Shown: positions 14,776 to 28,641 of the stretch, one piece after another
Position numbering within the stretch: position 1 is the stretch's first letter
Layout of the letters: each line of letters starts with the position of its first letter
Source: Patescibacteria group bacterium
GTDB lineage: Bacteria; Patescibacteriota; Patescibacteriia; UM-FILTER-42-10
Assembly: GCA_041664365.1 (NCBI GenBank)
Contig: JBAYKW010000006.1
Span: 7,286-71,285, forward strand
Direction: 5' to 3'
Length of the DNA stretch: 64,000 nucleotides
Notes under the pieces: generated by a model
Databases searched by the model: none
Seen by the model: only the letters and a program-made list of their open reading frames with translations
What the model was told of the DNA's origin: nothing
Translations under genes and position numbers: made by a program

Positions 14776-15099
14776 TTACTTACCATATTTATCGATAAGA
14801 AAACCCAACGCTGAACCAAGAATTAAAGTCATGATAAAAATCGGAATCAGTGAAAATGGTTCTTGCCAACCAATGATAATAGCCGAAGGCAATAAAACAA
14901 GGAATGAGATAATTATACCTTTTGCAATACCTTTTATTTTAAGATTACTTGTCGCGATTAAAAAACCAGAAATTATCCAAAGCGAGAAAGCCGACAGGTT
15001 GGCGTCCCAGGTTAATTTTTGAAGAACCATGGGAACAACATCAATGATTCCGGCTAAAGTCCCAAGTAAAATCCCAAGTTGGGTTTTCTTCATATTCAT
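14776..15099 (-). CDS. Small polytopic membrane protein
   Basis: 107 aa, three or four hydrophobic helices, AT-rich. Confidence 0.4.
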   Translation of the reverse strand: MNMKKTQLGILLGTLAGIIDVVPMVLQKLTWDANLSAFSLWIISGFLIATSNLKIKGIAKGIIISFLVLLPSAIIIGWQEPFSLIPIFIMTLILGSALGFLIDKYGK

Positions 15100-15230
15100 A
15101 ATGGTATCCTCAATTAATTAAAACTTAAATAACTTTCTCTGAGTGTCTCAAAATCAATAACGCCATATACAGACGAGCGTATGCCCGCCTTGACTCGCCG
15201 TCTGCGGCGAGGCAGGCTACGTTGCTAATT

Positions 15231-16166
15231 TTACCTTTTTCTTTCCCGGCCTTTTATATATCTATCCAAAGCCTCTTTTGAGCTTAGCCAATTTCGTCCT
15301 TCTTTGTAGGCCTCGAGTTTGCCCTGTCTTACTAGTAAGTTTAAATATTTAGCTGAGTAAGAAGTTTTTTTTGTTAGTTCCTTCAAAGAAATTAATTTTT
15401 CCTTATTTTTTTTAGAGGATAAAGTCTTTAAGTATATATCAAAAGACCGCTCAACTGTTTGAGCTATGAAGTTAACTAGTGATGCATAATCACCGGTATC
15501 GGCTTTAGCCAAGACGTTGTAGTATTTTTTTCTATCATTTTTTAGTATGATAGTTAGAGGATAGCCACTTTTCATCAATATTAGATTCATAGCTAATCTA
15601 GCCGTACGGCCATTGCCGTCAAAAAATGGGTGAATCTGTACCAATTTGTGATGAAATAAAGCAGCCAGTTCAACCGTTGGGATCTTGCTGTTATTTTTTA
15701 GCCAAACTAATAAACTTTCCATTAATTTCGGCACTTCAATAGCATGGGGTGGTGTATGCTTAGCACCCATGATAAAAACATTGGCAGTTCTGTATTTTCC
15801 AGCTTGTTCTTTTTCTGTTTCTTGGACAACAATTTGGTGGATAGAGCGGATTAACCTTTCAGAAATAGTATTTTGTTTGTTTTTATCAACCAAATCATAG
15901 AGATATTCTAAAGCTGCATATTGGTCTTTAGTTTCCAGGTGGTCTTTTAGAGGCTTGCCTTTAACTGTAATGCCCTCATTGATAACTAAAAAAGTTTCTT
16001 TGAGGGTTAGACTATTACCTTCTATAGCATTAGAATTATAGGTCATTTCTAACCTTAGTTTTTCTTGCAGTTTTTTGACTGCTACTTTAGGCAATGGCCG
16101 TTGTTTATTTAATTCTTTTCTTTTAGCTTCCAAACGAGAGGCGATTGTTTTGTGCAGATATTTCAT
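15231..16166 (-). CDS. Fic/DOC family protein with C-terminal HTH-like domain
   Basis: Fic motif HPFFDGNGRTARL (HPFx[DE]GNGR). 311 aa. The 8-bp inverted repeat ATGGTATA-N15-TATACCAT at 16171-16215 just upstream is a candidate operator. Confidence 0.85.
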   Translation of the reverse strand: MKYLHKTIASRLEAKRKELNKQRPLPKVAVKKLQEKLRLEMTYNSNAIEGNSLTLKETFLVINEGITVKGKPLKDHLETKDQYAALEYLYDLVDKNKQNTISERLIRSIHQIVVQETEKEQAGKYRTANVFIMGAKHTPPHAIEVPKLMESLLVWLKNNSKIPTVELAALFHHKLVQIHPFFDGNGRTARLAMNLILMKSGYPLTIILKNDRKKYYNVLAKADTGDYASLVNFIAQTVERSFDIYLKTLSSKKNKEKLISLKELTKKTSYSAKYLNLLVRQGKLEAYKEGRNWLSSKEALDRYIKGRERKR

Positions 16167-16473: not shown

Positions 16474-16508
16474 GTCCCATCATTGGGGATTTTATTGGAT
16501 ATTAATTT

Positions 16509-16817
16509 CTATTTTTCTTTATTAATCCACTTTTTATCAATTGCATCTTCCAGATCAATATCCAATAGGTGTGCGTTTAATATCGCCATACCAACAACAT
16601 CTGCAAGTTCTTTTGATAATTCTTTTTTGGATATTTCTGCAGATACAAGCTTTTTGGTTCTGCATTTTTTTCTATGTATTAATATGGCTTGCGCAAATTC
16701 TCCCAACTCTTCAACTAATTTAATTAATGCGAAATCCTCGTCTATTTTTATGTTATGCCTTTCTCCATACTGCATGGCATTTTTTACTACCTTTTGTTGT
16801 AATTCTTTGAATTCCAT
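16509..16817 (-). CDS. MazG-like nucleotide pyrophosphohydrolase domain protein (small)
   Basis: 102 aa; EELGEFAQAI motif typical of MazG/NTP-PPase all-alpha domains. Confidence 0.5.
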   Translation of the reverse strand: MEFKELQQKVVKNAMQYGERHNIKIDEDFALIKLVEELGEFAQAILIHRKKCRTKKLVSAEISKKELSKELADVVGMAILNAHLLDIDLEDAIDKKWINKEK

Positions 16818-16898
16818 AATTAAAAAAAATAATAATTAATTTCTAATAACCATTTATTATGCGAAACTTGTTATGTAAAGTTAACAATCTTAGTCTAG

Positions 16899-16945
16899 CA
16901 CCAAGGTTATGAGTGGGCAATACATACGAAAATCCCACCTTTTTG
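16899..16945 (+). repeat. Dispersed repeat family R4, copy 3
   Basis: CACCAAGGTTATGAGTGGGCAATACATACGAAAATCCCACCTTTTTG, compared with 13726-13773. Confidence 0.4.
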
Positions 16946-16971
16946 ATGATGGCGGAGACATGGACTATTGA

Positions 16972-17028
16972 CCCCGTTTGAGGAATTCCGCAAACGGGGT
17001 TGACATAACCGATATCTAGTGTTACCAT
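16972..17028 (+). promoter_or_regulatory. Palindrome CCCCGTTTGaggaattccGCAAACGGGG + TTGACA-N16/17-TTACCAT promoter for GC-rich island 2
   Basis: Same palindrome-abutting-(-35) architecture as 6296-6354. Followed by a ~100-nt leader and the SD TAGGAGG before the ATG at 17117. Confidence 0.45.
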
Positions 17029-17116
17029 GTCCGGTTCGTGTTTGGTGTGTCCCGCTGCCTTGATCACTTGTTGTAGCAATACAACAAACAGCTCTTAGGA
17101 GCCTTAGGAGGATGCA

Positions 17117-17389
17117 ATGTCACGATCCGTGTTCCGCGTGGACGAAAAAACCGAATGCGCGGTCGGTTGGGATGATCCGCTCGGCACGTTTTTCGGTCAG
17201 ATCTACAAAGTGGACCAGGAAGGCGAGCGCGTCGAGGAGGACGAGGACGGCAACGACGGGACGATCCTTTGGGTCGGCACGAAGCCGGCGGAGATCCGCA
17301 CCGTGGACGAGCTTGCGCGCAGGCTCCTGCCCCACGCTATCCTCACGCACGCCATCCACGCCGAGCTCTTCTCCATCGAGTGCGACTAG
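17117..17389 (+). CDS. Hypothetical small acidic protein (GC-rich island 2)
   Basis: Strong SD (TTAGGAGGATGCAATG); ~62% GC; 90 aa; no recognisable motifs. Confidence 0.5.
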   Translation: MSRSVFRVDEKTECAVGWDDPLGTFFGQIYKVDQEGERVEEDEDGNDGTILWVGTKPAEIRTVDELARRLLPHAILTHAIHAELFSIECD

Positions 17390-17572
17390 CACAACTCCTA
17401 CCGAGATCCAAGGAGTATAAATAAGGGTCTTCTTTTTTTGCAAAAAAACACAGTTGTTGAGTAGTTCGTTATGTGTTTAGATATTACCTATGTTCATTGA
17501 CACTAGTAGGTTTTTGTAGTAAAAGTTAGGAACCTGCACAATCACGTTTTCCAAATCGGGGGGAGGTGAATC

Positions 17573-17833
17573 ATGTCGGAGCAAAAGGTTGTTCCAGTCA
17601 CCGAAGGAGATGGGGGCAATGAGCTGAGGGCGGTACGTTTTCAGATCACAGACATCCTGTTTCAGCTTATCGCGAGGAGACTGGAAGAACTTGTGGTTCA
17701 GGATGTGGCTCGACAGGCTAAAACACCGTGGGAACAGCTTCAGGGGATAAAGGTAGAACGGATCGAACTGCGCCCCTCTCTCGAGGGACCCTTGATGTTC
17801 GTTAATCCGTACTACGATGATGATGATGACTAA
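17573..17833 (+). CDS. Hypothetical small protein with C-terminal poly-Asp tail
   Basis: SD GGGGGGAGGTGA 5 nt from the ATG; 86 aa ending YYDDDDD. Confidence 0.5.
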   Translation: MSEQKVVPVTEGDGGNELRAVRFQITDILFQLIARRLEELVVQDVARQAKTPWEQLQGIKVERIELRPSLEGPLMFVNPYYDDDDD

Positions 17834-17890
17834 GCTCCGACGGCTTCCAGTCGCGCAAGTAGCCAGGATTCAATGTCAGGAGGACGTCCC

Positions 17891-18100
17891 ATGTCGTCGG
17901 AACTCAGGGCAGTGATCATCAAGTACACTGCCATGCAGCTCGGTACGAGCGAGAGTAAAGTCACCTCGGACACGGTGATTCCGGACATCTACTGTCTGGT
18001 CAGATTCGTGTCCATTGAGACCGAGCGGTACGCGAAGAACATCAAGGATATCACCGCGAAGCACACCGTGGCGGAGGCCATCGCATTGTTCGAAGAGTAG
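17891..18100 (+). CDS. ACP-like (phosphopantetheine-attachment-like) small protein, paralog 1, lacking the conserved Ser
   Basis: SD AGGAGG 7 nt before the second ATG (MSSELRAV..). Layout ..IIKYTAMQLGTSESKVTSDTVI..........HTVAEAIALFEE parallels ACP (..IAEQLGVDEEEV...DSLDTVELV...TVQDAIDYI). The DSL serine position reads DIYCL. Confidence 0.5.
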   Translation: MSSELRAVIIKYTAMQLGTSESKVTSDTVIPDIYCLVRFVSIETERYAKNIKDITAKHTVAEAIALFEE

Positions 18101-18133
18101 AGGGCGTTTGAAAGACGAATGAGGAGGGTGTTC

Positions 18134-18340
18134 ATGGACTCAAATCTCAGGGCAGTGATCATCAAGCGCACCGCCCAGCAGCTTGGCGTGAGCGAGGATG
18201 ATGTCGCTATGGACACGGTGATCCCGAACATCCACGCCCTGGTCACAACCGTGGCCGCCGAGACCGGCGAGATCGGTTTCTGCAATGACATCCGAAAGAA
18301 GCACACCGTGGCGGAAGCCATCGCATTGTTCGAAGAGTAG
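18134..18340 (+). CDS. ACP-like small protein, paralog 2 (tandem duplicate; identical C-terminus KKHTVAEAIALFEE)
   Basis: SD GAGGAGGG before the ATG (MDSNLRAV..). About 55% identity to paralog 1. The Ser position reads NIHAL. Confidence 0.5.
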   Translation: MDSNLRAVIIKRTAQQLGVSEDDVAMDTVIPNIHALVTTVAAETGEIGFCNDIRKKHTVAEAIALFEE

Positions 18341-18372
18341 GGGTCGGAAGTCTAGACCCCTTTTTTTATTTG
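18341..18372 (+). terminator. Rho-independent terminator (GGGGTC-ggaagtcta-GACCCC-TTTTTTTATTT)
   Basis: Perfect 6-bp stem plus T7 run, immediately 3' of the ACP-like pair. It directly precedes the P2 promoter. Confidence 0.6.
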
Positions 18373-18374
18373 GA

Positions 18375-18404
18375 TTGACGGAAAATAAGCATTTATGATA
18401 AGTT
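18375..18404 (+). promoter_or_regulatory. P2 promoter TTGACG-N18-TAAGTT (copy 1)
   Basis: Duplicated at 21778-21806 (TTGACA-N17-TAAGTT). Both are followed by GATATRC and a conserved ~60-nt leader ending AAAACGAGGGAGA..CC-ATG. Confidence 0.45.
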
Positions 18405-18476
18405 GATATACCCTTGGCCGTTTCATTGGACTTGGGCCGGTATCGTTGAGGTATTGGCAAAACGAGGGAGAGATCC

Positions 18477-18866
18477 ATGTTCAAAGCCCCACGGCCTTAC
18501 TTTGAGGGAGCGCCTACTACCCCTGAGGAGCGTGCGGTTCTGCAAAATGCCGGCTACGTACACATCACCGGCCTTTGGTGCCACACTCGTGACCATGGTA
18601 TCAGGGAAGACGGCTACTATGTCGGCGAGAAGCTTTTTCACAGTCATCTGGGAACATGGCATGACTACTGCGAGCAGTCGGTGATCGTCACCGAGCGGGG
18701 CGAGGTCTGGCTGAAGAGCGGCAGTGGCGTTGCCTCTGTCGTCCACCAGTTCTGCCCGAACGGGCAGAGTGACTACTGGCCATTCGGCCTGGTTAGGCAC
18801 CAGCCGATCGCCGCGATTACTCGCCGGAGAATCGATCCGAATGATGGTCTGATCTACGTCCCTTGA
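18477..18866 (+). CDS. Hypothetical 129-aa protein, family X copy 1 (MFKAPRPYFEGAPTT..)
   Basis: Paralog of 21875..22261 (about 60% identity). Conserved promoter, leader, SD and terminator modules. About 60% GC. Confidence 0.6.
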   Translation: MFKAPRPYFEGAPTTPEERAVLQNAGYVHITGLWCHTRDHGIREDGYYVGEKLFHSHLGTWHDYCEQSVIVTERGEVWLKSGSGVASVVHQFCPNGQSDYWPFGLVRHQPIAAITRRRIDPNDGLIYVP

Positions 18867-18921
18867 TTGCACATCGCCGTTCATACGGCACCCCGCTAAT
18901 CCAAACTAGCTGGGTATTTTT

Positions 18922-19287
18922 TTAGTCTTTGTTTTCAATTTTCTTCGCAACTGTGTGGTTGAGGTCCTTGCGCCAGTTGTCTACATATGTTTTTGCCCCG
19001 CCCAATAGACCGTCGCAGAATGCGGCTACGTCTTGGCCGGTGATATCCAAAACTTGCTTGCTGTCTGCTGCGCCTTCTTCAAAAAGTCCTAGCACACCAT
19101 CAAGAATATCTATTGTATCCATTCCGCTGCCGGCGGAGAGTTTCCACATATATTTTTTTATCTCATCATATGCAAAATGGTAGTCGTTGGGTAGCTTTTT
19201 GGCGCGTGCTTCCATTCTACGCCATCTCTTTTTATCTCCGGTTACTTTTTTCCAGAAGTCGTTGACTGTTTTTAGTATGTTAGCCAT
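18922..19287 (-). CDS. DUF1048-like protein (PadR-associated)
   Basis: 121 aa, helical. It overlaps the upstream PadR stop by 8 nt. This pairing is commonly seen downstream of PadR-family regulators. Confidence 0.45.
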   Translation of the reverse strand: MANILKTVNDFWKKVTGDKKRWRRMEARAKKLPNDYHFAYDEIKKYMWKLSAGSGMDTIDILDGVLGLFEEGAADSKQVLDITGQDVAAFCDGLLGGAKTYVDNWRKDLNHTVAKKIENKD

Positions 19288-19609
19288 TTGATTGTTCCTT
19301 TAGTTTGTTAATACTTTTTGTGACGAACTGCCATTTTGCCCAGAAGGTGGACAGTTCTTTCCGTCCCGCGCTGTTGAGCGTGTAGAATTTGCGCACCGGT
19401 CCGACGTCGGACGATTTTTTCTTGATGTTTACCAGCTTGCCATTCTCGAGGCGTAGCAGAATGGTATAGACCGTTCCTTCCACCACGTCCGTGAAACCCA
19501 GCTCGCGGAGCATGGATGCTATTTCATAGCCGTAGGTTTCCTTCCGGCTGATGATTTCCAGGATACAGCCCTCGAGTACGCCTTTTAACATTTCTGTAAT
19601 GTTTTCCAA
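19280..19609 (-). CDS. PadR-family transcriptional regulator
   Basis: Winged-helix signature (KGVLEGCILEIISRKETYGYEIASMLRELGF...EGTVYTILLRLENGKLV). 109 aa. Confidence 0.8.
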   Translation of the reverse strand: MENITEMLKGVLEGCILEIISRKETYGYEIASMLRELGFTDVVEGTVYTILLRLENGKLVNIKKKSSDVGPVRKFYTLNSAGRKELSTFWAKWQFVTKSINKLKEQSNG

Positions 19610-19639
19610 AGTATTTCTCCTTTCAATTAAACTTGCTTA

Positions 19640-19690
19640 ATATGTAGTATCACTTACTACCACTACATAGTATCACGTAGTAGATTTGGT
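19640..19690. promoter_or_regulatory. Candidate PadR operator: ATGTAGT-N13-ACTACAT inverted repeat plus 9-bp direct repeat TAGTATCAC x2
   Basis: Sequence ATGTAGTATCACTTACTACCACTACATAGTATCACGTAGTA lies 30-80 nt upstream of the PadR start. PadR proteins bind ATGT/ACAT-type inverted repeats. Confidence 0.4.
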
Positions 19691-19790
19691 GTCAAGGGAT
19701 AGGATTTAGGCCCGCCCGGCTCGCCCTTGGCGATGCCAAGGCGGACGGGGGATAGGGGTGAGGGGTTAGGTTTTTTTAGGGTAGGGTTGC

Positions 19791-19940
19791 GTTCCGCGCT
19801 CCAGAAAACCCGATTACTATAATCCTAGACTGGTCGCTTGTCGGTGGACGTATTCTGAAAACATATGGATTCCCACTTTCGTGGGAATGACAGAGGGAGG
19901 GGTAACACTTGTTATCCTCGGGCTTGGCCCGGGGATCCAT
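19791..19940. repeat. Composite repeat copy D: R1 (19801-19847) followed by R2 hairpin pair (19866-19940)
   Basis: Near-identical in structure to copy B (7925-8029) and, in inverted order, to copy E (26658-26818). Confidence 0.5.
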
Positions 19941-19988
19941 GCAATTAATCTGATGCTGATATTAGCTAAAATTAGCCCTTTCATTATT

Positions 19989-20048
19989 GACCTCGTTAGA
20001 GAAGTTTCTCTAAACGGGGTTGACAAAAACCCAATTTAGGTCTATACT
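19989..20048 (+). promoter_or_regulatory. P1 promoter: palindrome CCTCGTTAGAGAAGTTTCTCTAAACGGGG + TTGACA-N17-TATACT (copy 1)
   Basis: -35 at 20020-25 and -10 at 20043-48. Followed by a ~175-nt conserved leader containing a 10-bp inverted repeat TCTCCTTGTT...AACAAGGAGA. Confidence 0.5.
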
Positions 20049-20222
20049 CTGCAGTTAACATTGAGATACTATGTAATAAATTTAAATCTCCTTGTTTGAG
20101 CCTGTGATCAAGAACAATCATGTGTTCTAACAAGGAGATCTACTCCTTGATAATACCGGCTTCGCAGTCCTACTATATCGATTCTTCACGAGTCCGAGGG
20201 TCCAAGTCCGAAAGGGTCAGTC

Positions 20223-20753
20223 ATGCAAAACAACGCAGGGTCCAAAATGACATTCGCCGAGTCTTCGTCGGCGTACTGGAGGAAGGACACTGTCCCTAAG
20301 CTGATCCCTACGCAGGTCATTGTGACCTTCATCGTGTGGGTGCTCTTCGCCGTCACGGTCAGTTCAATTCCCATCGAGTTGGATGGCCCCGCCATCATGC
20401 TCACGATCGCCATCGCGGTGCTCATGAGTGCGTGCGCGGTTATGACGGCTACCAAGGTCGCGTTTTCCGCCGGCTGGATTGGAACCGTGGCCGCCATGGC
20501 GTTTACCACGATCGCCACTGTCGCTGGTGCGAAGTCCCGTTGGCTTGGAGAACTCGATGCATTCAGGTGGCCAGCTGCGACGGCGATTACGTTCTTAATC
20601 GCGCTTGCGCTCGCGCTGGTGATTGGGAGCATCTGCTTCGCCATCGATGACGGTGACCATGCCGGCTGGGCCCTCAAGAAGAGGATCAGTTTCGCGTGCG
20701 TCGTGCAGTTTCTTGTCACGACGATCCCCCTCATCCTCATTCTTTGGAGGTAA
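20223..20753 (+). CDS. Hypothetical polytopic (4-TM) membrane protein, GC-rich cassette
   Basis: Starts GTCAGTC-ATG-CAAAAC as in the duplicate cassette. 176 aa; Ala/Val/Ile-rich helices. Confidence 0.55.
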   Translation: MQNNAGSKMTFAESSSAYWRKDTVPKLIPTQVIVTFIVWVLFAVTVSSIPIELDGPAIMLTIAIAVLMSACAVMTATKVAFSAGWIGTVAAMAFTTIATVAGAKSRWLGELDAFRWPAATAITFLIALALALVIGSICFAIDDGDHAGWALKKRISFACVVQFLVTTIPLILILWR

Positions 20754-20860
20754 TATCGCACATTTCAAGACCGGAGCATGTCTTTCAAGAACTGCTCACC
20801 CGCCAGGTAACTGACGGGTTTTTTCTTTGCCAAAAAAGTTATTCCTTTAAACGGGCTTGA

Positions 20861-20917
20861 CCCCGTTAGAGAAGTTTCTCTAACGGGGTTGACAAAACCC
20901 TGTTTTAGGTGTACATT
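20861..20917 (+). promoter_or_regulatory. P1 promoter copy 2: perfect palindrome CCCCGTTAGAGAAGTTTCTCTAACGGGG + TTGACA-N17-TACATT
   Basis: -35 at 20889-94. The leader is about 85% identical to copy 1 through to the start codon. Confidence 0.5.
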
Positions 20918-21103
20918 ATGCAGTTAAATAGAATTCTGCAAAGAAACTATATTAACGAATTCAAATCTCCTTGTTTGAGCCTGCGATCAAGAATAATCGT
21001 GTGTTCTAACAAGGAGGTTCGCTCCTTGATAATACTGGCTTCACGGTCCTACTGTAATCGCTTCTTCTCGAGTTCAGAGGGTCCAGGTCCGAAAGGGTCA
21101 GTC

Positions 21104-21622
21104 ATGCAAACGACGAGTTACGCTTACAACCACACAACCCGCGGGAGCATAATGCTCCTGCACATCTACCAGATCATCATGACGGTGGTCGTCATGGCGG
21201 TCTACCTTCTCGCCTACGACAAGATGATTGCCACTGCTGGCCCGCTGGGTCCATTGACCGAGTGTGGGTTCGCGGTGGCTGTCGCCTGCGCGGTCCTTAC
21301 CGCTTCTGCGGCAGGGGCGACGGCTCACGTCGTCTATGGGCGAGGAATCTGGATGGGGATCATCCTGTTCGTCATCGCAGTCGCCGGGGCATTCGGTACT
21401 GCATTCATGACGATCGCTGCGATGGTCGTGGCGCCACCGTTGGTGCCGGCTATCATGATCGTTTCAAGTGCAATTGTCGTGTCACTCGTGGTGTGGTCCT
21501 TGGCCGATATCGGGTCAAAAATCACCCACTCCAGGGACGAGACGCCGAGAAAGATTCTGTCTGCGATCCTGCAGACGATCGTCATCAGTGCCTTCGTCCT
21601 GACGCTCAGGCTCTGGTGGTAG
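21104..21622 (+). CDS. Hypothetical polytopic membrane protein, second P1 cassette (start re-assigned to MQTTSYAY..)
   Basis: The track ORF starts at 20909 inside the conserved leader. The homologous position of the cassette-1 start codon (GTCAGTCATGCAAA) is 21104. 172 aa, 4 TM. Confidence 0.5.
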   Translation: MQTTSYAYNHTTRGSIMLLHIYQIIMTVVVMAVYLLAYDKMIATAGPLGPLTECGFAVAVACAVLTASAAGATAHVVYGRGIWMGIILFVIAVAGAFGTAFMTIAAMVVAPPLVPAIMIVSSAIVVSLVVWSLADIGSKITHSRDETPRKILSAILQTIVISAFVLTLRLWW

Positions 21623-21777
21623 TCTCTCCGCGAGATGTCCATCATCCACCACCCTCATCGTTTGGAGGTGATACATGTACATTCAAGACCGGAGCACGTC
21701 TTTCAAGAACTGCTCACCCGCCAGGTAACTGACGGGTTTTTTCTTTGCCCCCCACACCTGTGAACAAGTGTGGGGGG

Positions 21778-21806
21778 TTGACATAAAATCACCTTTGTGA
21801 TAAGTT
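21778..21806 (+). promoter_or_regulatory. P2 promoter copy 2, preceded by palindrome CCCCCCACACctgtgaacaaGTGTGGGGGG
   Basis: See 18375-18404. Confidence 0.45.
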
Positions 21807-21874
21807 GATATGCTTCTGGAGGCTTTGTCGAACCTGCCGGTATCGCTAATGCCGGCAAAACGAGGGAGAAAACC

Positions 21875-22261
21875 ATGTTCAAAGTGCCACAGCCTTACTT
21901 CGAGGGCGCACCGACGACTGCCGAAGAACGCAGGGTTCTGCAATGTGCCGGCTACATACACATGACCGGCCTGTGGTTCCTTACCCCTGACCGTGGCCAC
22001 GGCGTCCACGTTAATTACATGGGCCAGGGCATCGTCCAGGAAGAGATGGGCACGTGGAATGAATTCGACGGACAGTCGGTGATCGTCACCAAGCGGGGCG
22101 AGGTCTGGATGAAGACCGGCAGTAGTGTGACTTCCGCCACCGCACTGCTTTGTCCAAACGGACGGAGCGACTACAAGCCTTTCACCCAGACTGACCGGCC
22201 GATTGACGGAATGATCCGCCGGATCGCCGATCCGAACGACGGCTTGACCTACGTTCCTTGA
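21875..22261 (+). CDS. Hypothetical 128-aa protein, family X copy 2
   Basis: Paralog of 18477..18866. Conserved 3' module TGATYGCACAYYGCCGT..ACGGCACCCCGCT...GGGTATTTTTTT (terminator). Confidence 0.6.
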   Translation: MFKVPQPYFEGAPTTAEERRVLQCAGYIHMTGLWFLTPDRGHGVHVNYMGQGIVQEEMGTWNEFDGQSVIVTKRGEVWMKTGSSVTSATALLCPNGRSDYKPFTQTDRPIDGMIRRIADPNDGLTYVP

Positions 22262-22381
22262 TCGCACACTGCCGTATACACGGCACCCCCGCTCATACAA
22301 ACAGCGGGTATTTTTTTACAAAAAAATAATCCCAGTCTAAGGATTATTAATAGTATTACGTATTACAATTACAATTTACAA

Positions 22382-22876
22382 TTATAATACCTTGGCGTAG
22401 AGATAAGCGTCATGCAGTTCATCACCGCGCCTGGCCGCTTTGCGCATTAGTCCTTCTTTTTTGTATCCGCATTTGATTGCTACTTTTTGACTGCCGGTAT
22501 TTTTCGTATTCATTTTAATTTCAATTCTAACCAATCCCAGTTTCCGGAATCCAATTTTCTCCAGCAGTTTCACCGCTTTGGTGGTGATACCCCTGCCCCA
22601 ATAGGTTTCGTCCAGAAAATACCCGATCTCCCCGCACAGTTTGTTATCCGGGTTGATTTTAATCCCGCAACCGCCAACCATCTTTGTGCCGTACATGATA
22701 GCGAAGTGCTGGTTCAGGCTTTTTTTATTCTGCTTGGCGTGTTTCTGCAGGATTTTTCTTTCCTCCGCAACTGATTTCGGGCAGATCCGGAAATAAATAA
22801 AATTGGGGTTGTTGAGAATCTCATAAAACCTTTTCGCGTCGGATACTTTTTGTTTGCGGATTGTTACTTTGAGCAT
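22382..22876 (-). CDS. GNAT-family N-acetyltransferase (RimJ/RimL-like)
   Basis: 164 aa; acetyl-CoA binding region (GYFLDETYWGRGITTKAVKLL) typical of ribosomal-protein N-acetyltransferase-like GNATs. Confidence 0.7.
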   Translation of the reverse strand: MLKVTIRKQKVSDAKRFYEILNNPNFIYFRICPKSVAEERKILQKHAKQNKKSLNQHFAIMYGTKMVGGCGIKINPDNKLCGEIGYFLDETYWGRGITTKAVKLLEKIGFRKLGLVRIEIKMNTKNTGSQKVAIKCGYKKEGLMRKAARRGDELHDAYLYAKVL

Positions 22877-22887
22877 TAATTAGTCGG

Positions 22888-23571
22888 CTATGTTTTTTTA
22901 GTACCTTTTTTTACAATTTTTTTCTCAATGCTTTTTAAATCCTGCAGAATATGTTGATATGATCCTATTGATCTCATAACACATAATCCCGGAAGTGTCT
23001 CACCAGTTGCTCTGTTCGGTACATATGCTGAAATTATGCCGGAGAACTTTGGCTCACCATTTTTATCAGCATAAAAAACGGGTCCGCCACTAACTCCATT
23101 AATTGCGACTCCGTCAACTAAATATGATTCTTCCTTGGGAATGTGGCAACTGATATGACCGGAAAAAAAACAAAGATCATTAGCAGCTACGGACGGAAAA
23201 CCGCACCAACCGACTTCAAAACCTTGTTGAAGAATTTCGTCTTTGTCTATCAGGTCCAAAGGTTTTGGTATTATTGGAAGATCCTTATTTTTAAATAGGA
23301 TAAATGCCACATCTTTCTCAGGATATCTTGTAATTGTTCTGTCGTTGTGCTTTAAAAGGACAGATTTTCCTGACTGATGGTGAATAATTCTGATTGGTTC
23401 CTCCCAGTCATCTTCATGAGAAATAACATGATCCGCAGTAGCAATACCAAGGAAATTGGTTTTTTCAGAATAAAAAATCTGAAATCCGGTTCCTGATACA
23501 CTCGGAGTTTTGATTTTGAAAATATATGGTGTAATTTTCATTAAAGGATTATGCCAGTTTATTTGTTCCAT
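22888..23571 (-). CDS. Trypsin-like (S1 family) serine peptidase domain protein, no signal peptide
   Basis: Catalytic triad context: TADHV (His), DVAFILF (Asp), GVSGGPVF (Ser in the GxSGGP motif). Confidence 0.55.
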   Translation of the reverse strand: MEQINWHNPLMKITPYIFKIKTPSVSGTGFQIFYSEKTNFLGIATADHVISHEDDWEEPIRIIHHQSGKSVLLKHNDRTITRYPEKDVAFILFKNKDLPIIPKPLDLIDKDEILQQGFEVGWCGFPSVAANDLCFFSGHISCHIPKEESYLVDGVAINGVSGGPVFYADKNGEPKFSGIISAYVPNRATGETLPGLCVMRSIGSYQHILQDLKSIEKKIVKKGTKKT

Positions 23572-23593
23572 AGATTTTATATAAGAATTAATT

Positions 23594-23866
23594 TTATTTG
23601 TTATTGTGATATGAATTTAACCACCATTTCTTAAATAAAGGAATTGTTAAAGTGGAAAGAAAAAATGCAACGGCAGGGACAATCGCATTAATAAAAGGTT
23701 TAGGCAATTTTGCAAAAAAGAAAAAGATAACTATAACAATATAGGTCAGCAGTAGGATAATAAATTTACGGATCCAGCTGGTTTCCCATGCTTTATCCGC
23801 CTCTACACGTTGATTTCGCTTTTTTATTTCTTCTATTTCACGTTGTAAATCGTCGAATGATGGCAT
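23594..23866 (-). CDS. Small 2-TM membrane protein
   Basis: 90 aa; charged N-terminus then hydrophobic helices. Confidence 0.4.
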   Translation of the reverse strand: MPSFDDLQREIEEIKKRNQRVEADKAWETSWIRKFIILLLTYIVIVIFFFFAKLPKPFINAIVPAVAFFLSTLTIPLFKKWWLNSYHNNK

Positions 23867-23896
23867 AAATATGTACAGATTATCGAAACGGTGTGT

Positions 23897-24988
23897 TTAA
23901 CTAGTTGTTGTTTGTTTTGAATCCTGCTGGATTCGTCGGCAACGTTCCAGATGGTAATCATAAAAAATACATCCCTCGCCGATACAACTGGTACGCGGGC
24001 AGACTTCCGCCAGACGGTTCGGGTCAATTGCTTTTTTCAAAATCTCTTTTATTTCATCTAAACTAAGTCTGGTTGGTGTCACGCCTTCCGGTGCGATCCC
24101 GCCGTTCTGAATGCTGTTGGCGGTCGTATCGTAATACCATTCTTCCACCCCTTTCAGGCGGGCAGATTTTGCCAGTTCATCAATACTGGTGATTTCCAGA
24201 ACTGCATCTTTTTTGCGGGCTTCTTCAATACGTAACATGACAGCGACGTCTTTAAGATTGATATCGCGCATTTGCCTGGTGATCAGGTTCGTGTGTCCTG
24301 AAGATAATCGCTGTACTACCACATCCGCTTTGGTGTCCGGGTTTGCCCTTAGGAACCCCACCAGACTGACGTCGTCATTTTCCACGACTACTATTTTAAC
24401 CAGCTTCTTGCCCTGAAACACTTCAAACTGGTCGGTCTTATTATCCTGCTGGAGTTTTTCCCATTCCTGCGGGAGGACAGTCATTCTTTTCCTCTCTTCT
24501 CTATAATGTGAAACAAAAATCGGCATAACGATATTGATAATCTTCTGCGGTTCACTCTGGTATTCGCGGTTCAGATTCATGATCAGACCGGAAAGTCCAA
24601 AGGCCCGGTCGATCGGATCATTGGAAATAATTCCCTTACCTTCCAGATCGTCTCTTTTGACGTAAGTTAGTAGTTTCTTCAAAGCGGGGTCGTTTTCCAC
24701 TTCCAAGTATTTTGCCACCAAAGTGGTGGCACATTCGCCCGTGTTGTCTTTGCCACCTTCCTGGGTATGGTGGTCGAATTTTCCTCCTCCCATATCAATC
24801 AGCAATATCCCTTCAGCTTCATAATCGTCGGTAGTCTTACCTTCCGGCACGCTGTTCCAGAATTCTATTTTACTATTTCTGACCCCCGGGAATTTTTCTT
24901 CACCAAAAAGCTTCAATAACATGATCGCCACAATGTTGTCCGGATGCGGACGGGGGAAGATTACAATTGTATGGATTGGTTGGGGCAT
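23897..24988 (-). CDS. DHH-family phosphoesterase-like protein (NrnA-like core) with C-terminal Cys-rich extension
   Basis: Motif I-like HPDN, motif II LLIDMGGG, motif III FDHH, DHHA1-like SSGH. The C-terminal CPRTSCIGEGC...C cluster is not typical of NrnA. Confidence 0.5.
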   Translation of the reverse strand: MPQPIHTIVIFPRPHPDNIVAIMLLKLFGEEKFPGVRNSKIEFWNSVPEGKTTDDYEAEGILLIDMGGGKFDHHTQEGGKDNTGECATTLVAKYLEVENDPALKKLLTYVKRDDLEGKGIISNDPIDRAFGLSGLIMNLNREYQSEPQKIINIVMPIFVSHYREERKRMTVLPQEWEKLQQDNKTDQFEVFQGKKLVKIVVVENDDVSLVGFLRANPDTKADVVVQRLSSGHTNLITRQMRDINLKDVAVMLRIEEARKKDAVLEITSIDELAKSARLKGVEEWYYDTTANSIQNGGIAPEGVTPTRLSLDEIKEILKKAIDPNRLAEVCPRTSCIGEGCIFYDYHLERCRRIQQDSKQTTTS

Positions 24989-24992
24989 GGGA

Positions 24993-25062
24993 GGTAGTAA
25001 CTAGTAATTGGTAAGTTGGTAATTTGTAAATAGTAATCGGTAAACGGTAATTGGTAATATTA
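24993..25062. repeat. Degenerate tandem heptamers (NNNGGTA/NNNTGTA x ~9)
   Basis: GGTAGTA ACTAGTA ATTGGTA AGTTGGTA ATTTGTA AATAGTA ATCGGTA AACGGTA ATTGGTA. A second array of the same type lies at 48733-48790. Confidence 0.4.
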
Positions 25063-25292
25063 TGTAACCATTGCGAGCGAACACAGAGAGCGACGCAATC
25101 CCGATACTAATTTGGAATGATTATTAATGAGTAGCGGGATTGCTTCACTCCGCCTTGGCGGAGTTCGCAATGGTTTCTTTTGTAAGTATAACGCAAAAAG
25201 CTTTATAAAAAAAGTAGGCCCCCGGGAGTAAACATCTAGCAGAATTGCAGATGAATACTCGAGGGGGCACAGTAGGAAAGAACTTGGAACGT

Positions 25293-26408
25293 CTAGCGGA
25301 TGCACTCCTGAACCAGCTCAACGATCTTGAGCGAGTGGATGCACGACGCCGGCGTGTGACTGCCGGTCCGGGACCAGTTCTGGAGGGAGTTGAACTCCCT
25401 CACGAAGAACCAGATCTTCTCCGGCTTGATTGCGTAGTTGGGGCTGGCGAAGCGTTCCTGGATCAGGATGGACTCGAACAGCTTCTCGAGATGAATCCGG
25501 GACGCAACGCGCTTGTTCGTCAGGATCGAGATGTTCCCTGACCTGCGCCTGATGACCAGGAGGTCAGCCAGGTTCAGATCGAAACATGCCGACGCTACGT
25601 CCTGGTTATCGGTCTCGAGAAGAACTCCCCGGAGACCATTGCCGAACGTGAACGTCCGCGACTTCTTGAAAATCTCCACTGCACGCAGTCTTGCCTGGTG
25701 GCGGGCCTTCTGGTGTTTCGACCAGATCTCCCGCCAGAACTTGACCTCGGAGAGAATCTCCTTGTCAGTGGCGCCGTTGATGGCCATGTTGCGGATGTAT
25801 CCGGAGAGACTCCAGCTACTCTTGTGAGCATGGAACCGCCAGTACTCAGCCATGACCTCGTCGCTACGCAGCTCCGGGTCAGGCTTTCCGCGCGCCATCA
25901 GATGCGCGTCGATGACCTTGAACATCTGGTTCAGAACATTCTTGTTCGCGAATCCCATCTTGCACATCGACAAGATGATCAAGGCGAACGCGTAGGGCAA
26001 GCCCTTCAGCTCACCCGTCTTGTTGTTCTGGTTGGCGAGTGCCACCAGTTCCAACGGTGCGGGGTGGTTGATGCCGAAGTCGTGAGCCACGACTCCGGAA
26101 GAGGAGCCGAACCCACGCTCGCGGTACATGTTGAAGTCCACGTCCACGAGGTAGAGGTTGCGCGAACGGGCGCTCTTCTTCTGAGCGTCCGTCAACCAAA
26201 CTCGGTCGGCGAACTCCAGGGTCGTGTCCTCGAGTTTCCACCCGAGTGTGTGCATCGCCAAGTAAAGCGCGACGACCTTATCGAATTTCAAGGCCGCGCT
26301 GAGAAGTCCCTGATACCGCATCATGGGGTTTCCTCCTGCCATGACAGAGGTTGTTTGTCCCGTTGTTGGGACTTTGTTCCGCGTGAGCAGAACGTTGTCG
26401 AAGAGCAT
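25293..26408 (-). CDS. Hypothetical 371-aa protein, GC-rich cassette driven by a P1-type promoter
   Basis: SD GAGGAG 8 nt upstream of the ATG (MLFDNVLL..; track start 26435 is 9 codons further up). About 56% GC. No recognisable motifs. Confidence 0.5.
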   Translation of the reverse strand: MLFDNVLLTRNKVPTTGQTTSVMAGGNPMMRYQGLLSAALKFDKVVALYLAMHTLGWKLEDTTLEFADRVWLTDAQKKSARSRNLYLVDVDFNMYRERGFGSSSGVVAHDFGINHPAPLELVALANQNNKTGELKGLPYAFALIILSMCKMGFANKNVLNQMFKVIDAHLMARGKPDPELRSDEVMAEYWRFHAHKSSWSLSGYIRNMAINGATDKEILSEVKFWREIWSKHQKARHQARLRAVEIFKKSRTFTFGNGLRGVLLETDNQDVASACFDLNLADLLVIRRRSGNISILTNKRVASRIHLEKLFESILIQERFASPNYAIKPEKIWFFVREFNSLQNWSRTGSHTPASCIHSLKIVELVQECIR

Positions 26409-26540
26409 ACTATGTCTCCTCGTATGAATCGGCAATTTAGAATTGTCGGCTCAAACGAAAAGCTTTCAGGTACCAATGGAGAGATACTGAAAGCGCCGAT
26501 TGTTGACATAGCTCTCTCCAGAATTCTATGTTAACAGGCC

Positions 26541-26569
26541 AGTATATACCTAAATTGGGTTTTTGTCAA
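26541..26569 (-). promoter_or_regulatory. P1 promoter copy 3 (minus strand): AACGGGG-TTGACA-N17-TATACT, identical -35/spacer to 20020-20048
   Basis: Reverse complement of 26541-26580 reads CCCAAACGGGGTTGACAAAAACCCAATTTAGGTATATACT. Only the right half of the palindrome is retained. Confidence 0.5.
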
Positions 26570-26657
26570 CCCCGTTTGGGACAAAGGGAGAGCAAGCTCT
26601 CCACCTACATTCTTGCATCAGTACTTTTTAGCTAATATTAGCAATTAATTAATTCTA

Positions 26658-26818
26658 TGGATTACCGCTGGAGTTTATCCCCGCGAAGGCGGGGACGGGA
26701 ATGACTTGTTGTTTTGATTGTCATCATCGGGCTTGACCCGGGGATCCATTACAATAATATATTGAACCAGCGCTCCGACAAGCGACCAGTTTGGACAACC
26801 AAAATCGGGTTTTCTGCA
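26658..26818. repeat. Composite repeat copy E: R2 hairpin pair (26658-26749) then R1 in inverted orientation (26769-26818)
   Basis: Reverse complement of 26769-26818 = CTGCAGAAAACCCGATT..AAACTGGTCGCTTGTCGGAGCGC. Inverted relative to copy D. Confidence 0.5.
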
Positions 26819-26877
26819 GGGCGGAACGCAACCCCACCCTTAACCTTTAGACAATAGACAAGTATAATTAAAACACT

Positions 26878-28641
26878 ATGCAGAAAAAACTGGAAAACAT
26901 ACCACAGAAGCCGGGTGTCTACTTTTTCAAGGACCAGAAGAATAACATTCTTTATATTGGCAAGGCAACTAACCTGAAAAGCAGGGTGCGTTCGTATTTC
27001 CAGAAATCCGCTTCTTTGGAAATCACTAAGCAGATCATGGTGCAGAAGGCGGTGGACGTGGACTATGTAATAGTGGATTCGCCGACGGAGGCACTGCTAC
27101 TCGAATCCAGTTTAATTAAAAAATACAAACCGCCCTATAATATCAGTTTGAAAGATGATAAATATTTTGTGTATCTGAAAGTAACATTGGATGAAGAGTT
27201 TCCGCGGGTGCTGACGGTGCGCCGGGTGGAAAAAGATAAAAACCGTTACTTCGGTCCGTACGCGTCCGCCACGGCGGTGAAAAATACTTTGCATCTTTTG
27301 AAAAGAATTTTTCCGTATAAAATTTGTAAAAATCCGCCGGAGCAGCCGTGTCTGGGATATCATATCGGCCGGTGTCTGGGACATATTACGGATACAAATA
27401 CGAAAAAAGATTATCAGCAGATCGTCCGGGGGGTGATCAATTTTCTGGAAGGAAAAAATACCAAAATTGTTTCCGATCTGAAAGCGGAAATGAAACTGGC
27501 ATCCAAGCAGAAGAAGTTTGAAAAGGCGGCCCGGCTGCGCGATCAGATTTTTTCCATCGGGTCGGTAATGGAACGGCAGAAAGTGGTGTCCACCAAAAAA
27601 GAAAACCAGGACTTTGTCAGTATCGCCCGCACTGAAAGCATTGCCGCGATCAATCTGTTCATGGTGCGGGAAGGAAAACTGATTCACCAGGAAAGTTTTC
27701 TGCTGGAGCATGTGAAAAACCGACCGGATGAAAAACTGCTGGAGTCATTTTTGAGCCAGTATTATTCACAAGTTTCCCAATTCCCGAAACAGATTTTTAT
27801 TCCCGTAAATATCAGCGATTTTGAAATACTGGAACAGTTCACCAAAGCTAGAATCACCGTTCCGAAAAGAGGACGCAAGCAGAAACTGATTAAACTGGGA
27901 GCGATCAACGCCGAGCAGTATTTGCGCCGGCATGAACTGGAAGTTGCCGGCCGTGATCAGATCGGCATGAAAGCAATTCAGGAGCTTGCGGAGAAACTGG
28001 GCCTGAAAAAACCCCCGCACCGGATCGAGGCATATGATATTTCCAATATCCAAGGTACCAACGCGGTTGGATCCATGGTGGTTTTTACGGATGGAATGCC
28101 GGATAAAGCGCAGTACCGTAAATTTAAAATCAAGACCGTTAAAGGTGCGAACGATCCGGCAATGATGCGTGAGGTATTGAGTAGAAGGTTTGAAAAAGTA
28201 AAAGCCGAAATGAAAAATCGCTGGTTGTTGCCGGATCTGGTTATTCTGGACGGAGGTAAGGGGCAACTGAGCTCGGGGGTTTCGGTCTTGGCGCGTGGCG
28301 GAATTAAAATCCCGATTGTGGCACTTGCTAAACAAGAAGAAGAAATATTTGTTCCGGGAAAAAGCGAATCAATCAGGATCTCCCACGATTCGGAAAGTTT
28401 GAAAATACTGCAGAGGATCCGCGATGAAGCGCACCGGTTTGCAATCGGATTTTATCGTTCAAGACACAGGAAGGCGACACATCGGTCGCTTCTGGACGAG
28501 ATTCCGGGAGTCGGACCTGTCTCTAAGAAAAAACTGATCCGGGAATTCGGTTCGGTGCAGGGGATTCGTGATGCTGATGTTTTGCAATTGGAAAAAGCGG
28601 TGGGTAAAAAATTAGCAAAAATTGTGAGAGAATATTTATAA
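26878..28641 (+). CDS. uvrC: Excinuclease ABC subunit C
   Basis: N-terminal GIY-YIG (GVYFFKDQKNNILYIGKATNLKSRVRSYF), UvrBC-interaction, RNase H-like endonuclease and C-terminal HhH domains. 587 aa. Confidence 0.9.
   Translation: MQKKLENIPQKPGVYFFKDQKNNILYIGKATNLKSRVRSYFQKSASLEITKQIMVQKAVDVDYVIVDSPTEALLLESSLIKKYKPPYNISLKDDKYFVYLKVTLDEEFPRVLTVRRVEKDKNRYFGPYASATAVKNTLHLLKRIFPYKICKNPPEQPCLGYHIGRCLGHITDTNTKKDYQQIVRGVINFLEGKNTKIVSDLKAEMKLASKQKKFEKAARLRDQIFSIGSVMERQKVVSTKKENQDFVSIARTESIAAINLFMVREGKLIHQESFLLEHVKNRPDEKLLESFLSQYYSQVSQFPKQIFIPVNISDFEILEQFTKARITVPKRGRKQKLIKLGAINAEQYLRRHELEVAGRDQIGMKAIQELAEKLGLKKPPHRIEAYDISNIQGTNAVGSMVVFTDGMPDKAQYRKFKIKTVKGANDPAMMREVLSRRFEKVKAEMKNRWLLPDLVILDGGKGQLSSGVSVLARGGIKIPIVALAKQEEEIFVPGKSESIRISHDSESLKILQRIRDEAHRFAIGFYRSRHRKATHRSLLDEIPGVGPVSKKKLIREFGSVQGIRDADVLQLEKAVGKKLAKIVREYL

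Follow-up and report, generated by a model that had tools for sequence, protein, structure and literature searches.

Two tandem gene units in a 64,000-nucleotide (nt) stretch of DNA from an uncultured groundwater Patescibacteria group bacterium (contig JBAYKW010000006.1, positions 7,286 to 71,285; the whole stretch is called the window below) carry divergent membrane-protein genes between nearly constant non-coding modules. With a probability of about 0.55, they are read here as tandem cassettes from a lineage-specific kit, whose leader is a two-state translational switch and whose copies in units 1 and 2 are derived, locked versions of it. The kit would combine a strong sigma-70-type promoter, which a GC-rich palindrome adjoins, with a folded 5′ leader and a block that carries an intrinsic terminator. 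Within a small Patescibacteria clade it would stay nearly constant, with the genes between its modules diverging or being replaced. The homology of the modules, the constraint on the leader, its helices with compensatory changes and the mosaic relationships among copies are directly visible in the sequences; from these we infer where transcription starts, that translation is controlled, which way the switch works and what signal feeds it.

A preliminary description of the same DNA had proposed two tandem units with common promoter, leader and 3′ modules. A reading of the sequence from 19700 to 22100, combined with a repeat search, confirms that both units are real and lie close to where they had been placed. 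Their modules, including the coding sequences (CDS) and the G+C contents at third codon positions (GC3) where relevant, are as follows.

19987–20831, forward strand: unit 1, with palindrome, promoter, leader, CDS and terminator block.
19991–20019, forward strand: unit 1 palindrome, GC-rich and imperfect (CCTCGTTAGAG...CTCTAAACGGGG), abutting the −35 hexamer; repeat family D11.
20020–20048, forward strand: unit 1 promoter, TTGACA-N17-TATACT, matching the consensus at 11 of 12 positions.
20056–20222, forward strand: unit 1 leader, truncated form, with the P1 hairpin at 20087–20138 and segment 3 (CTCCTTG) at 20143–20149.
20223–20753, forward strand: unit 1 CDS, encoding a 176-amino-acid (aa) membrane protein with 4–5 hydrophobic helices; GC3 0.75.
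20764–20831, forward strand: unit 1 3′ block and intrinsic terminator, with the hairpin at 20799–20818 and the T-run at 20819–20824; repeat family D14.
20857–21749, forward strand: unit 2, with the same module order as unit 1.
20861–20888, forward strand: unit 2 palindrome with a perfect 12-base-pair (bp) stem (CCCCGTTAGAGA-AGTT-TCTCTAACGGGG), abutting the −35 hexamer.
20889–20917, forward strand: unit 2 promoter, TTGACA-N17-TACATT, matching the consensus at 10 of 12 positions.
20925–21103, forward strand: unit 2 leader, truncated form, with the P1 hairpin at 20966–21017 and segment 3 at 21022–21028.
21104–21622, forward strand: unit 2 CDS, encoding a 172-aa membrane protein; the NCBI start lies 16 codons later (156 aa).
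21682–21749, forward strand: unit 2 3′ block and terminator, with the hairpin at 21717–21736 and the T-run at 21737–21742; family D14.

Both promoters, with near-consensus hexamers and a 17-nt spacer, qualify as predicted sigma-70-type promoters and fall within the top four sites by score in the 11.5 kb scanned. A palindrome abuts the promoter in both units, as had been reported, but it is perfect in unit 2 only. The common 3′ block likewise holds, its two copies being identical at 67 of 68 positions (99%), with one correction: the homology already begins within the unit 1 CDS, about 20 nt from its end. The corresponding stretch of unit 2 is found downstream of the stop codon, and the sequence at ∼21650–21672, ahead of the 3′ block, is a leftover of the ancestral CDS end. 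Homology between the units breaks off sharply at the start codon, and again near the stop codon. Each 3′ block contains a predicted intrinsic terminator, read straight from the sequence as a GC-rich hairpin directly before a T-run (stem CCCGCCAG/CTGACGGG, loop GTAA, then TTTTTT; 20799–20824 and 21717–21742). It is unchanged in all six copies compared; a simple terminator scan missed it in the units because of one C·A mismatch in the stem.

The unit 1 and unit 2 leaders share 85.8% identity over the 162 nt that reach as far as GTCAGTCATGCAAA (BLASTN), in line with the ∼85% first estimated. The 10-bp inverted repeat that had been noticed in them, TCTCCTTGTT/AACAAGGAGA, is found in both units at 20087–20096/20129–20138 and 20966–20975/21008–21017. 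It belongs to the P1 hairpin, a nearly perfect helix of ∼21 bp; in unit 1 an outer stem formed by segments 1 and 2 encloses an inner GAGC..GUUC stem. A coding explanation of this similarity, in which the leaders are merely the 5′ coding ends of longer open reading frames (ORFs) such as the 237-aa ORF at 20909–21622, draws on the fact that the unit 2 ORF from 20909 crosses the leader in frame with the 172-aa ORF. The equivalent frame of unit 1 is out of register through two 1-nt indels in the leader (net 2 nt), stop codons interrupt the full-length leaders introduced below, and substitutions keep base pairing rather than codons. On this frame comparison the coding explanation is rejected as refuted and retains practically no weight, which bears out the suspicion already voiced in the preliminary description that this ORF is unsupported.

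A third copy of the promoter, on the reverse strand, was said to drive a 371-aa gene through a different leader. The promoter copy stands; the leader is not a different one, since the alignment of seven copies makes it a full-length homologue of the same family. The gene start has also moved, from 26408 to a most likely position of 26324, which is preceded by the Shine–Dalgarno (SD) sequence AGGAGG and gives a protein of 343 aa. In the lines below, the P1-type promoter is to be distinguished from the P1 hairpin of the leader.

26541–26577, reverse strand: third P1-type promoter, TTGACA-N17-TATACT, with only half a palindrome ahead of it; repeat family I1.
26325–26539, reverse strand: full-length leader, with P0, S2, P1, segment 3, P2, an SD-occluding hairpin and an upstream ORF.
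25293–26324, reverse strand: putatively leader-controlled gene of the 343-aa protein, with SD AGGAGG and a DHH/DHHA1-type fold.
23897–24988, reverse strand: 363-aa DHH/DHHA1-type paralogue, which keeps GGGKFDHH and is 83–86% conserved in nucleotides between genomes.

Modules were sought by BLASTN against the loci of related genomes and by pattern scans of metagenome and genome collections. The leader family comprises seven copies in four genomes, namely the window genome, L003 (NCBI JBAYGW01), L009/L013 (NCBI JBAYGC01) and a third related genome, L006. L003 holds two copies, one at a membrane-protein cassette (L003a) and one at the counterpart of the DHH-like gene (L003b). Five copies are full-length (the third leader of the window, L003a, L003b, L006 and L009) and the two of units 1 and 2 are truncated; judged from its sequence, the third leader of the window is the ancestral-looking full-length form. 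In L003, L006 and L009 the leader also stands ahead of a 351–362-aa gene, the counterpart of 25293–26324 in the window. One leader family thus precedes two unrelated gene families, membrane proteins and the DHH-like gene.

A covariance model of four copies recovers the third leader at 26368–26496 (53.8 bits, E = 1.5e-12), unit 2 at 20955–21042 (38.2 bits, E = 2e-8) and unit 1 at 20063–20163 (35.7 bits, E = 9e-8), and no further copy in 124 kb of the window and the related genomes' loci. In the metagenome and genome scans the kit occurs only in the three related genomes, apart from one chance match (L008). The leader modules are absent from viral contigs in DNA pattern scans, and the two-unit region has no BLASTN match in phage and plasmid collections. 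At gathering thresholds, the only match of the window in Rfam 15 is a tRNA; at permissive thresholds, the best matches in 16500–27000 have E = 0.5–4.6, far below gathering scores. Neither these genomes nor a leader of this kind turned up in a literature search. The earlier idea of a shared cis-regulatory leader RNA is upheld insofar as the leader is non-coding, conserved and rich in compensatory changes, and fails as regards a known riboswitch or other Rfam family, none of which matched. The leader is a novel, narrowly distributed structured regulatory RNA of a known general kind.

Constraint on this RNA is strong. Leaders of L003b, L013 and L006 are 90–95% identical, as against 55–69% at four-fold degenerate sites and 82–88% at codon positions 1 and 2 of the downstream gene. 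The third leader of the window is 68–70% identical to those of its relatives, with 27–32% at four-fold sites; core-genome nucleotide identity is ∼80–83%. Since leader identity exceeds that of both four-fold sites and codon positions 1 and 2, the leader is more constrained than the downstream protein and, as far as these comparisons tell, under strong purifying selection.

The substitutions that did occur tend to keep pairing. Standard pairs fill 86.9% of cells in the seven-sequence alignment, compared with 33–42% when partners are slid by 1–3 columns. Two-sided pair changes number seven, against 3.1 in shuffles (seven were reached in 3 of 500) and 0–2 when slid. In P2, two adjacent pairs have changed between L003b (GUUCCG/CGGAAC) and L006 and L009 (GUCUCG/CGAGAC). 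In the P1 apex the sequence is different in each copy and the pairing is kept, with a U–A pair in unit 1 replaced by C–G in unit 2. The alignment and folding that the preliminary description had proposed as a check thus reveal compensatory changes in several helices. As the sample is small and closely related, these statistics are supportive rather than conclusive.

From 5′ to 3′, the full-length leader (∼200 nt) consists of P0, S2, P1, segment 3, P2 and a final hairpin over the start codon or the SD. Segments 1 and 2 form P1 around an inner stem GAGCC/GGCUC and an apex that varies; segment 3 reads CUCCUUG and P2 is GUYYCG/CGRRAC. Central to the argument is segment 2 (ACAAGGAG), which is SD-like and can pair with either segment 1 or segment 3. 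In the third leader of the window, segment 2 carries an A-to-G change and segments 1 and 3 each carry the corresponding U-to-C change, so that alignment column 169 co-varies with columns 127 and 190 and both helices are kept. The helix between segments 2 and 3 (2:3) is paired in all seven copies. It and the helix between segments 1 and 2 (1:2), which likewise pairs in every copy, are mutually exclusive, as in attenuators, and under constrained folding the two conformers of the full-length leaders are 1.7–3.3 kcal/mol apart. A base of segment 2 that co-varies with two alternative partners suggests a two-state switch. In the proposed mechanism, the leader would control translation according to whether segment 2 lengthens P1 by pairing with segment 1 or takes the anti-SD-like segment 3 as its partner. 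The 5′ domain (P0, S2 and a short upstream ORF) would set the choice, its input being either a factor that binds or a ribosome that terminates on this ORF.

In units 1 and 2 this arrangement appears to have been frozen. Their leaders have neither P0, S2, the upstream ORF nor P2, and their segment 1 has changed from UUUUUGUU to UCCUUGUU, turning two G·U pairs into G–C pairs that would lock P1; in constrained folding of unit 2 the 1:2 state wins by 5.5 kcal/mol. These leaders are a derived, truncated and probably locked form, and the two cassettes are probably deregulated (constitutive) descendants.

The same features lend themselves to another explanation, in which the leader is a constitutive structural element, such as an mRNA stabilizer or an RNase III site, rather than a switch, and the flanks are a strong expression kit kept by selection or gene conversion. 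The long, nearly perfect hairpin of units 1 and 2 would suit such a role, as would the position of P0 at the extreme 5′ end of the predicted transcript, the persistence of a truncated leader ahead of intact ORFs and the lack of a match to any ligand-type Rfam family. It leaves unexplained that all seven copies retain segment 3 and the 2:3 helix, that both partners of segment 2 compensate for its change, and that ∼200 nt, unpaired loops included, are more conserved than codon positions 1 and 2. We regard this as unlikely, while ranking it first among the alternatives. Control by transcription attenuation was considered and rejected, as no U-run follows either the P1 or the 2:3 hairpin; control of translation or of mRNA stability is therefore the more likely.

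The gene behind the full-length leader of the window encodes a protein whose AlphaFold model (predicted local distance difference test score, pLDDT, 94) has the two-domain DHH/DHHA1 fold. Foldseek relates it to the DHH domains of PF0399, PggH, NrN and RecJ at E = 3e-5 to 1e-3, with template-modelling scores (TM-scores) that are low (0.28–0.43). Alignments of the 343-aa family contain no conserved His-His of the catalytic DHH motif. The protein and the product of the adjacent 363-aa gene are remote paralogues (hhalign probability 98.8%). A full HMMER search yields 73 representatives, none with a Pfam domain; a word-indexed search matched only the protein itself, and a search of PDB sequences with the family profile had no match. 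The 343-aa protein is 35% identical to its counterparts in the relatives, which are 76–81% identical to one another, and the 3′ flank of its gene (25169–25281) is 88% identical in the relatives, conserved like its leader. By these identities the gene repeats the pattern of the membrane-protein cassettes, a constant leader and 3′ flank around a divergent CDS. Three distant homologues of the gene have long upstream leaders that are unrelated to this family; the leader is therefore not an old companion of the 343-aa gene family.

In a further explanation the leader is a small-molecule riboswitch of a new class, with P0 and S2 as the sensing domain and segments 1–3 as the expression platform; the genes behind it, for a phosphoesterase-like protein of DHH fold and for membrane proteins, would suit a nucleotide-derived signal. 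P0 (GUUAACAUAG/CUAUGUCAAC) sits at the very 5′ end of the predicted transcript and holds GGAGAGAG in its loop, and S2 (GCUUUCAG/CUGAAAGC) holds UCUCUCC. The two loops are complementary (GGAGAGA/UCUCUCC) and could form seven loop–loop base pairs in all five full-length copies; in L009 a 42-nt insertion inside the P0 loop folds into a hairpin of its own. Highly conserved unpaired stretches, nearly iso-energetic conformers and the use of one leader family before two unrelated gene families are what such a riboswitch would lead one to expect, and the DHH/DHHA1 fold of the 343-aa protein agrees with it. It seems quite unlikely all the same, because P0, S2 and the loop–loop pairing are invariant and show no co-variation, the family has an extremely restricted distribution, the leader is missing at distant homologues of the DHH-like gene, the 343-aa family has no catalytic DHH histidines, and the GGAGAGAG stretch serves equally as the SD of the upstream ORF.

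This upstream ORF opens a further possibility, ribosome-mediated translational attenuation of the erm/cat type, in which a ribosome pausing or terminating on a 14-codon ORF covers segment 1, so that segment 2 pairs with segment 3 and the main ribosome-binding site opens. In each of the five full-length leaders an AUG is preceded by GGAGAGAG, that is, by an SD of its own. In L003a, L003b and L009 the ORF has 14 codons (MST[I/F]SAFRVSPCVH) and ends in a UGA 4 nt before segment 1; two of the three substitutions among these intact copies are synonymous. In the third leader of the window it runs from 26509 to 26321 on the reverse strand (62 codons) and its stop overlaps the main start codon as ATGA. 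Together with the four-segment layout of SD-like and anti-SD-like sequences, these features favour attenuation. It is nevertheless improbable, given that the ORF is frameshifted by a 1-nt insertion in L006, where it becomes fused in frame to the main ORF, that its window copy is longer and units 1 and 2 lack it, that pairing of segment 3 with segment 4 (3:4) is not the preferred fold, and that the controlled genes are not resistance genes. The layout of the upstream ORF fits an involvement of the ribosome and does not prove it; the GGAGAGA ahead of it could instead pair with the S2 loop.

Several observations weigh against the two-state translational switch and the kit around it. The family numbers only seven copies from four closely related genomes, and most helices are invariant across them. 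The co-variation of three positions reflects just one event, in a copy that has diverged. Minimum-energy folds hide the main start codon or SD in a local hairpin in both states, so that a coupling of the 1:2/2:3 choice to ribosome access is only putative. Folding of the whole unit 1 leader is not clearly better than that of shuffled sequence (z = −0.4), as opposed to unit 2, where it is (z = −2.4). The upstream ORF is not uniformly kept, the distant homologues of the DHH-like gene have unrelated leaders, and promoters, start sites and terminators are consensus matches only.

The 176-aa and 172-aa proteins are only weakly similar, as had been observed (BLASTP E = 0.066, 21% global identity); both are membrane proteins, with the four transmembrane helices first ascribed to them corrected to 4–5 long hydrophobic ones. 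L003 contains a complete cassette at 5857–6774, with a promoter 90% identical to that of unit 1, a full leader, a 190-aa gene and a terminator block of 90–92% identity. Its protein, which like those of units 1 and 2 has several long hydrophobic helices, is homologous to the unit 1 protein (28% identity, E = 6e-6); its comparison with the unit 2 protein gives E = 0.29 in BLASTP. Beyond these, the payloads are orphans. In a word-indexed search of 5.8 billion proteins the 172-aa protein matched only itself, exact look-up of the 176-aa and 156-aa proteins gave no record, and scans of Pfam, PADLOC and PHROGs found no family for the payloads or the neighbouring orphan genes. The AlphaFold model of the 176-aa protein has a pLDDT of 56. 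The 128-aa protein encoded after unit 2 has two relatives in a protein search.

Leader and terminator group unit 1 with unit 2, through the derived truncated leader and the 99%-identical 3′ block, whereas the CDS groups unit 1 with L003a (E = 6e-6) rather than with unit 2 (E = 0.066). As flanks and CDS of unit 1 group differently, recombination has moved modules, and the cassette shuffling suggested earlier is supported in substance. Either the flanks of an old paralogue pair were homogenized by gene conversion, or a foreign CDS was put between duplicated flanks. Purifying selection, together with gene conversion between the tandem copies, would keep the flanks of units 1 and 2 alike.

AACGGGGTTGACA is present five times in the window, for an expected number of 0.04, and GC-rich palindromes of 28–30 nt abut TTGACA at five promoters of the window, including that of rpsF (0–1 in shuffled sequence). 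Besides those of the two units, the following were recorded.

6319–6361, reverse strand: palindrome (6332–6361) and TTGACA at the promoter of the rpsF-ssb-rpsR operon.
16972–17028, forward strand: palindrome CCCCGTTTGAGG..CCGCAAACGGGG (16972–16999) and promoter of a 90-aa ORF with an unrelated leader.
21749–21806, forward strand: a different palindrome, CCCCCCACACC..GGTGTGGGGGG (21749–21777), and TTGACA at the promoter of the 128-aa gene.

Palindromes come in at least three sequence types, the third being held by L006. The orthologous rpsF promoter in L003 carries an unrelated palindrome resembling that of the 128-aa gene in the window, and the palindrome is missing at the 90-aa gene of L003 and half-present at the third promoter of the window. 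The preliminary description took the palindrome for an operator of the cassettes. A cassette-specific repressor operator would place the same palindrome at all and only the co-regulated promoters; the palindrome is found at rpsF as well, its types are swapped at orthologous promoters and it is absent at some homologous ones, and the operator reading has been dropped. The sequence pattern argues for a general, exchangeable promoter accessory, for example an insulator, a terminator-like hairpin or a repeat element. Promoter palindromes of the relatives lie at ∼5614–5641 in L003, ∼60–90 in L006 and ∼5040–5066 in L013. The leader of the 90-aa gene (17060–17116; L003 9520–9550) contains a CUUGUUGUA...UACAACAAG hairpin whose stem resembles the P1 outer stem, with GGA in the loop of the L003 copy.

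The cassettes lie in a variable island between rpsF (∼6.3 kb) and uvrC (26.9 kb), which measures 20 kb in the window and 10 kb in the syntenic region of L003. By exact look-up of its UvrC protein the window belongs to ENA contig k141_1477485 (132.8 kb), and NCBI assigns the same proteins to a Patescibacteria metagenome-assembled genome. Island genes have a GC3 of 0.73–0.85, versus 0.50–0.54 in core genes. The L003 cassette adjoins rpsF instead of the 128-aa gene, so that its chromosomal site differs from that of the window cassettes. Upstream of unit 1 is a further repeat.

19775–19971, forward strand: intergenic repeat 'R', ∼200 nt, upstream of the P1-type promoter; families D5, D9, I3, I4 and I8.

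Other copies of R lie at 6399–6467, 7908–8030, 9540–9754 and 26626–26843 (inverted) in the window and at 5640–5850 and 6790–7008 in L003. They contain GGTCGCWTGTCGGAGCGC, a GGATTCCCGC...GCGGGAATGACA hairpin and GGGCTTGAYCCGGGGATCCAT, and stand just upstream of P1-type promoters and after terminators, bracketing gene modules of the island. R has no match in Rfam.

Mobility by site-specific recombination, integron-like or repeat-mediated, could also account for modules on the move, with the palindromes or R repeats as recombination sites and the flanks as cassette ends. It would explain why the L003 cassette sits between direct copies of R at a different site, why the slot next to rpsF holds different payloads in two genomes, and why palindromes have been exchanged between orthologous promoters. 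Short contigs from other samples end inside the common 3′ block, which points the same way and is equally expected of any repeat. The island ORFs tested (6.7–26.4 kb) yielded neither an integrase nor a transposase, and each unit has its own promoter and terminator, in contrast to integron cassettes. Moreover, the changes in the leader are of the compensatory RNA type and specific to the transcribed strand, and the limits of homology at start and stop codons fit homologous recombination or selection on regulatory parts. This mode of movement is therefore very improbable.

Some other features of the region are recorded here. GC3-rich island genes, for example at 6712–7829, 17117–18866, 20223–22261 and 25293–26324, are nearly all orphans, and tandem paralogue pairs of 177/180, 69/68 and 129/128 aa occur among the island genes. 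A low-GC part of the island (10088–16166) encodes a C5 cytosine methylase beside a HATPase_c_3 protein, a TipAS/MerR regulator and a Fic protein. Directly upstream of unit 1, the stretch 18922–19609 encodes a PadR regulator and a DUF1048 protein. Public gene calls place antisense ORFs at ∼20186–20761 (177 aa, reverse strand) and 25698–26534 (273 aa, forward strand). Outside the island, 33367–33898 holds three tandem tRNA-like repeats (families D8 and D20), of which only tRNA-Leu(CAG) at 33618–33704 is called by ARAGORN and Rfam, and 35907–40268 is a 1453-aa ORF with FG-GAP-type repeats and, in its 3′ part (39351–40211), DNA repeats of ∼150 nt.

Patescibacteria (the candidate phyla radiation) are uncultured and mostly symbiotic, with very small genomes, and almost nothing is known of their gene regulation. 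In this context, a leader RNA that has been conserved more strictly than the downstream proteins and bears signs of two states is a concrete, testable regulatory element. Constant flanks around divergent, GC3-rich orphan membrane-protein genes point to a rapid turnover of envelope proteins which, if it proceeds by recombination in non-coding modules, would bear on dealings with hosts or phages. The antisense public gene calls replace the ORFs that agree with promoters and terminators, hiding these proteins from protein databases; wrong-strand calls thus leave the family nearly invisible there. It is tempting, if doubtful, to go further and propose a new lineage-specific RNA switch, sensing a ligand or the ribosome, that co-ordinates a small regulon of a nucleotide-phosphoesterase-like DHH-fold protein and fast-evolving membrane proteins, and whose modules double as homology arms for payload swaps. 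If so, the same non-coding modules would carry both the regulation and the replacement of surface-exposed payload genes in symbionts with tiny genomes.

Comparison with known systems places the leader and its cassettes among several models. Domain V of group II introns is a 34-nt hairpin with an AGC triad, a 2-nt bulge and a GNRA loop, set within domains I–VI. The leader recalls it by the GAGC...GUUC stem base with a G·U pair and by the GUAA tetraloop of L003a. It differs by having no 2-nt bulge, an 8-nt loop in the window copies and GAGCC/GGCUC in some copies, and no other intron domains or intron-sized element accompany it. The corresponding family match (Plastid-petD D5) was rejected at 22.1 bits, compared with a gathering score of 65.5 (E = 0.68), and the resemblance is superficial.

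An integron cassette is a promoterless ORF that ends in attC and lies beside an intI integrase. With such cassettes, and with the recombinase-associated orphan-immunity arrays of Bacteroidales, the units share a tandem array of small membrane- or immunity-type genes and repeated conserved intergenic sequences. Unlike integron cassettes, each unit has its own promoter and terminator and no attC-type 3′ site, and no integrase lies among the ORFs tested at 6.7–26.4 kb; unlike the Bacteroidales arrays, no toxin or immunity family was recognized in the Pfam, PADLOC and PHROGs scans. In the minimal mobile elements and intergenic mosaic elements of Neisseria, homologous recombination exchanges the genes that lie between flanks which stay conserved. 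Here the flanks are each gene's own promoter, leader and terminator, not neighbouring genes, and the host is a Patescibacteria bacterium. The likeness lies in divergent genes between the same conserved flanks, intergenic repeats at the borders and an exchange explicable by homologous recombination in the flanks.

Closest to the leader itself are two classes of translational control. The ermC, cat and cmlA attenuators have a short leader ORF with its own SD and segments that pair 1:2 or 2:3, and a 3:4 helix hides the main SD until a ribosome stalls. In the present leader the upstream ORF stops short of segment 1 instead of covering it, and not every copy retains it; 3:4 is not the predicted fold, for although CUCCUU can pair with the SD, minimum-energy folds use the local start-codon hairpin instead; and the genes encode a DHH-fold protein and membrane proteins, with no sequence similarity to those systems. 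The architecture is otherwise alike: the leader measures ∼150–200 nt, its full-length copies have an upstream ORF, short in three of them, behind an SD of its own, consecutive segments can form either the 1:2 or the 2:3 helix, some of them resemble an SD or an anti-SD, and a hairpin buries the main ribosome-binding site. Translational riboswitches, such as the thiM/thiB thiamine pyrophosphate (TPP) riboswitches (PMC10578472), join an aptamer to an SD-sequestering expression platform. The leader departs from them in having neither an Rfam match nor a known ligand, in its restriction to a few genomes and in a sensing domain without co-variation. It resembles them in having a conserved 5′ domain ahead of helices that exclude each other close to an SD-like sequence, and further in the strong conservation of its unpaired nucleotides and in the placement of one RNA family before unrelated genes.

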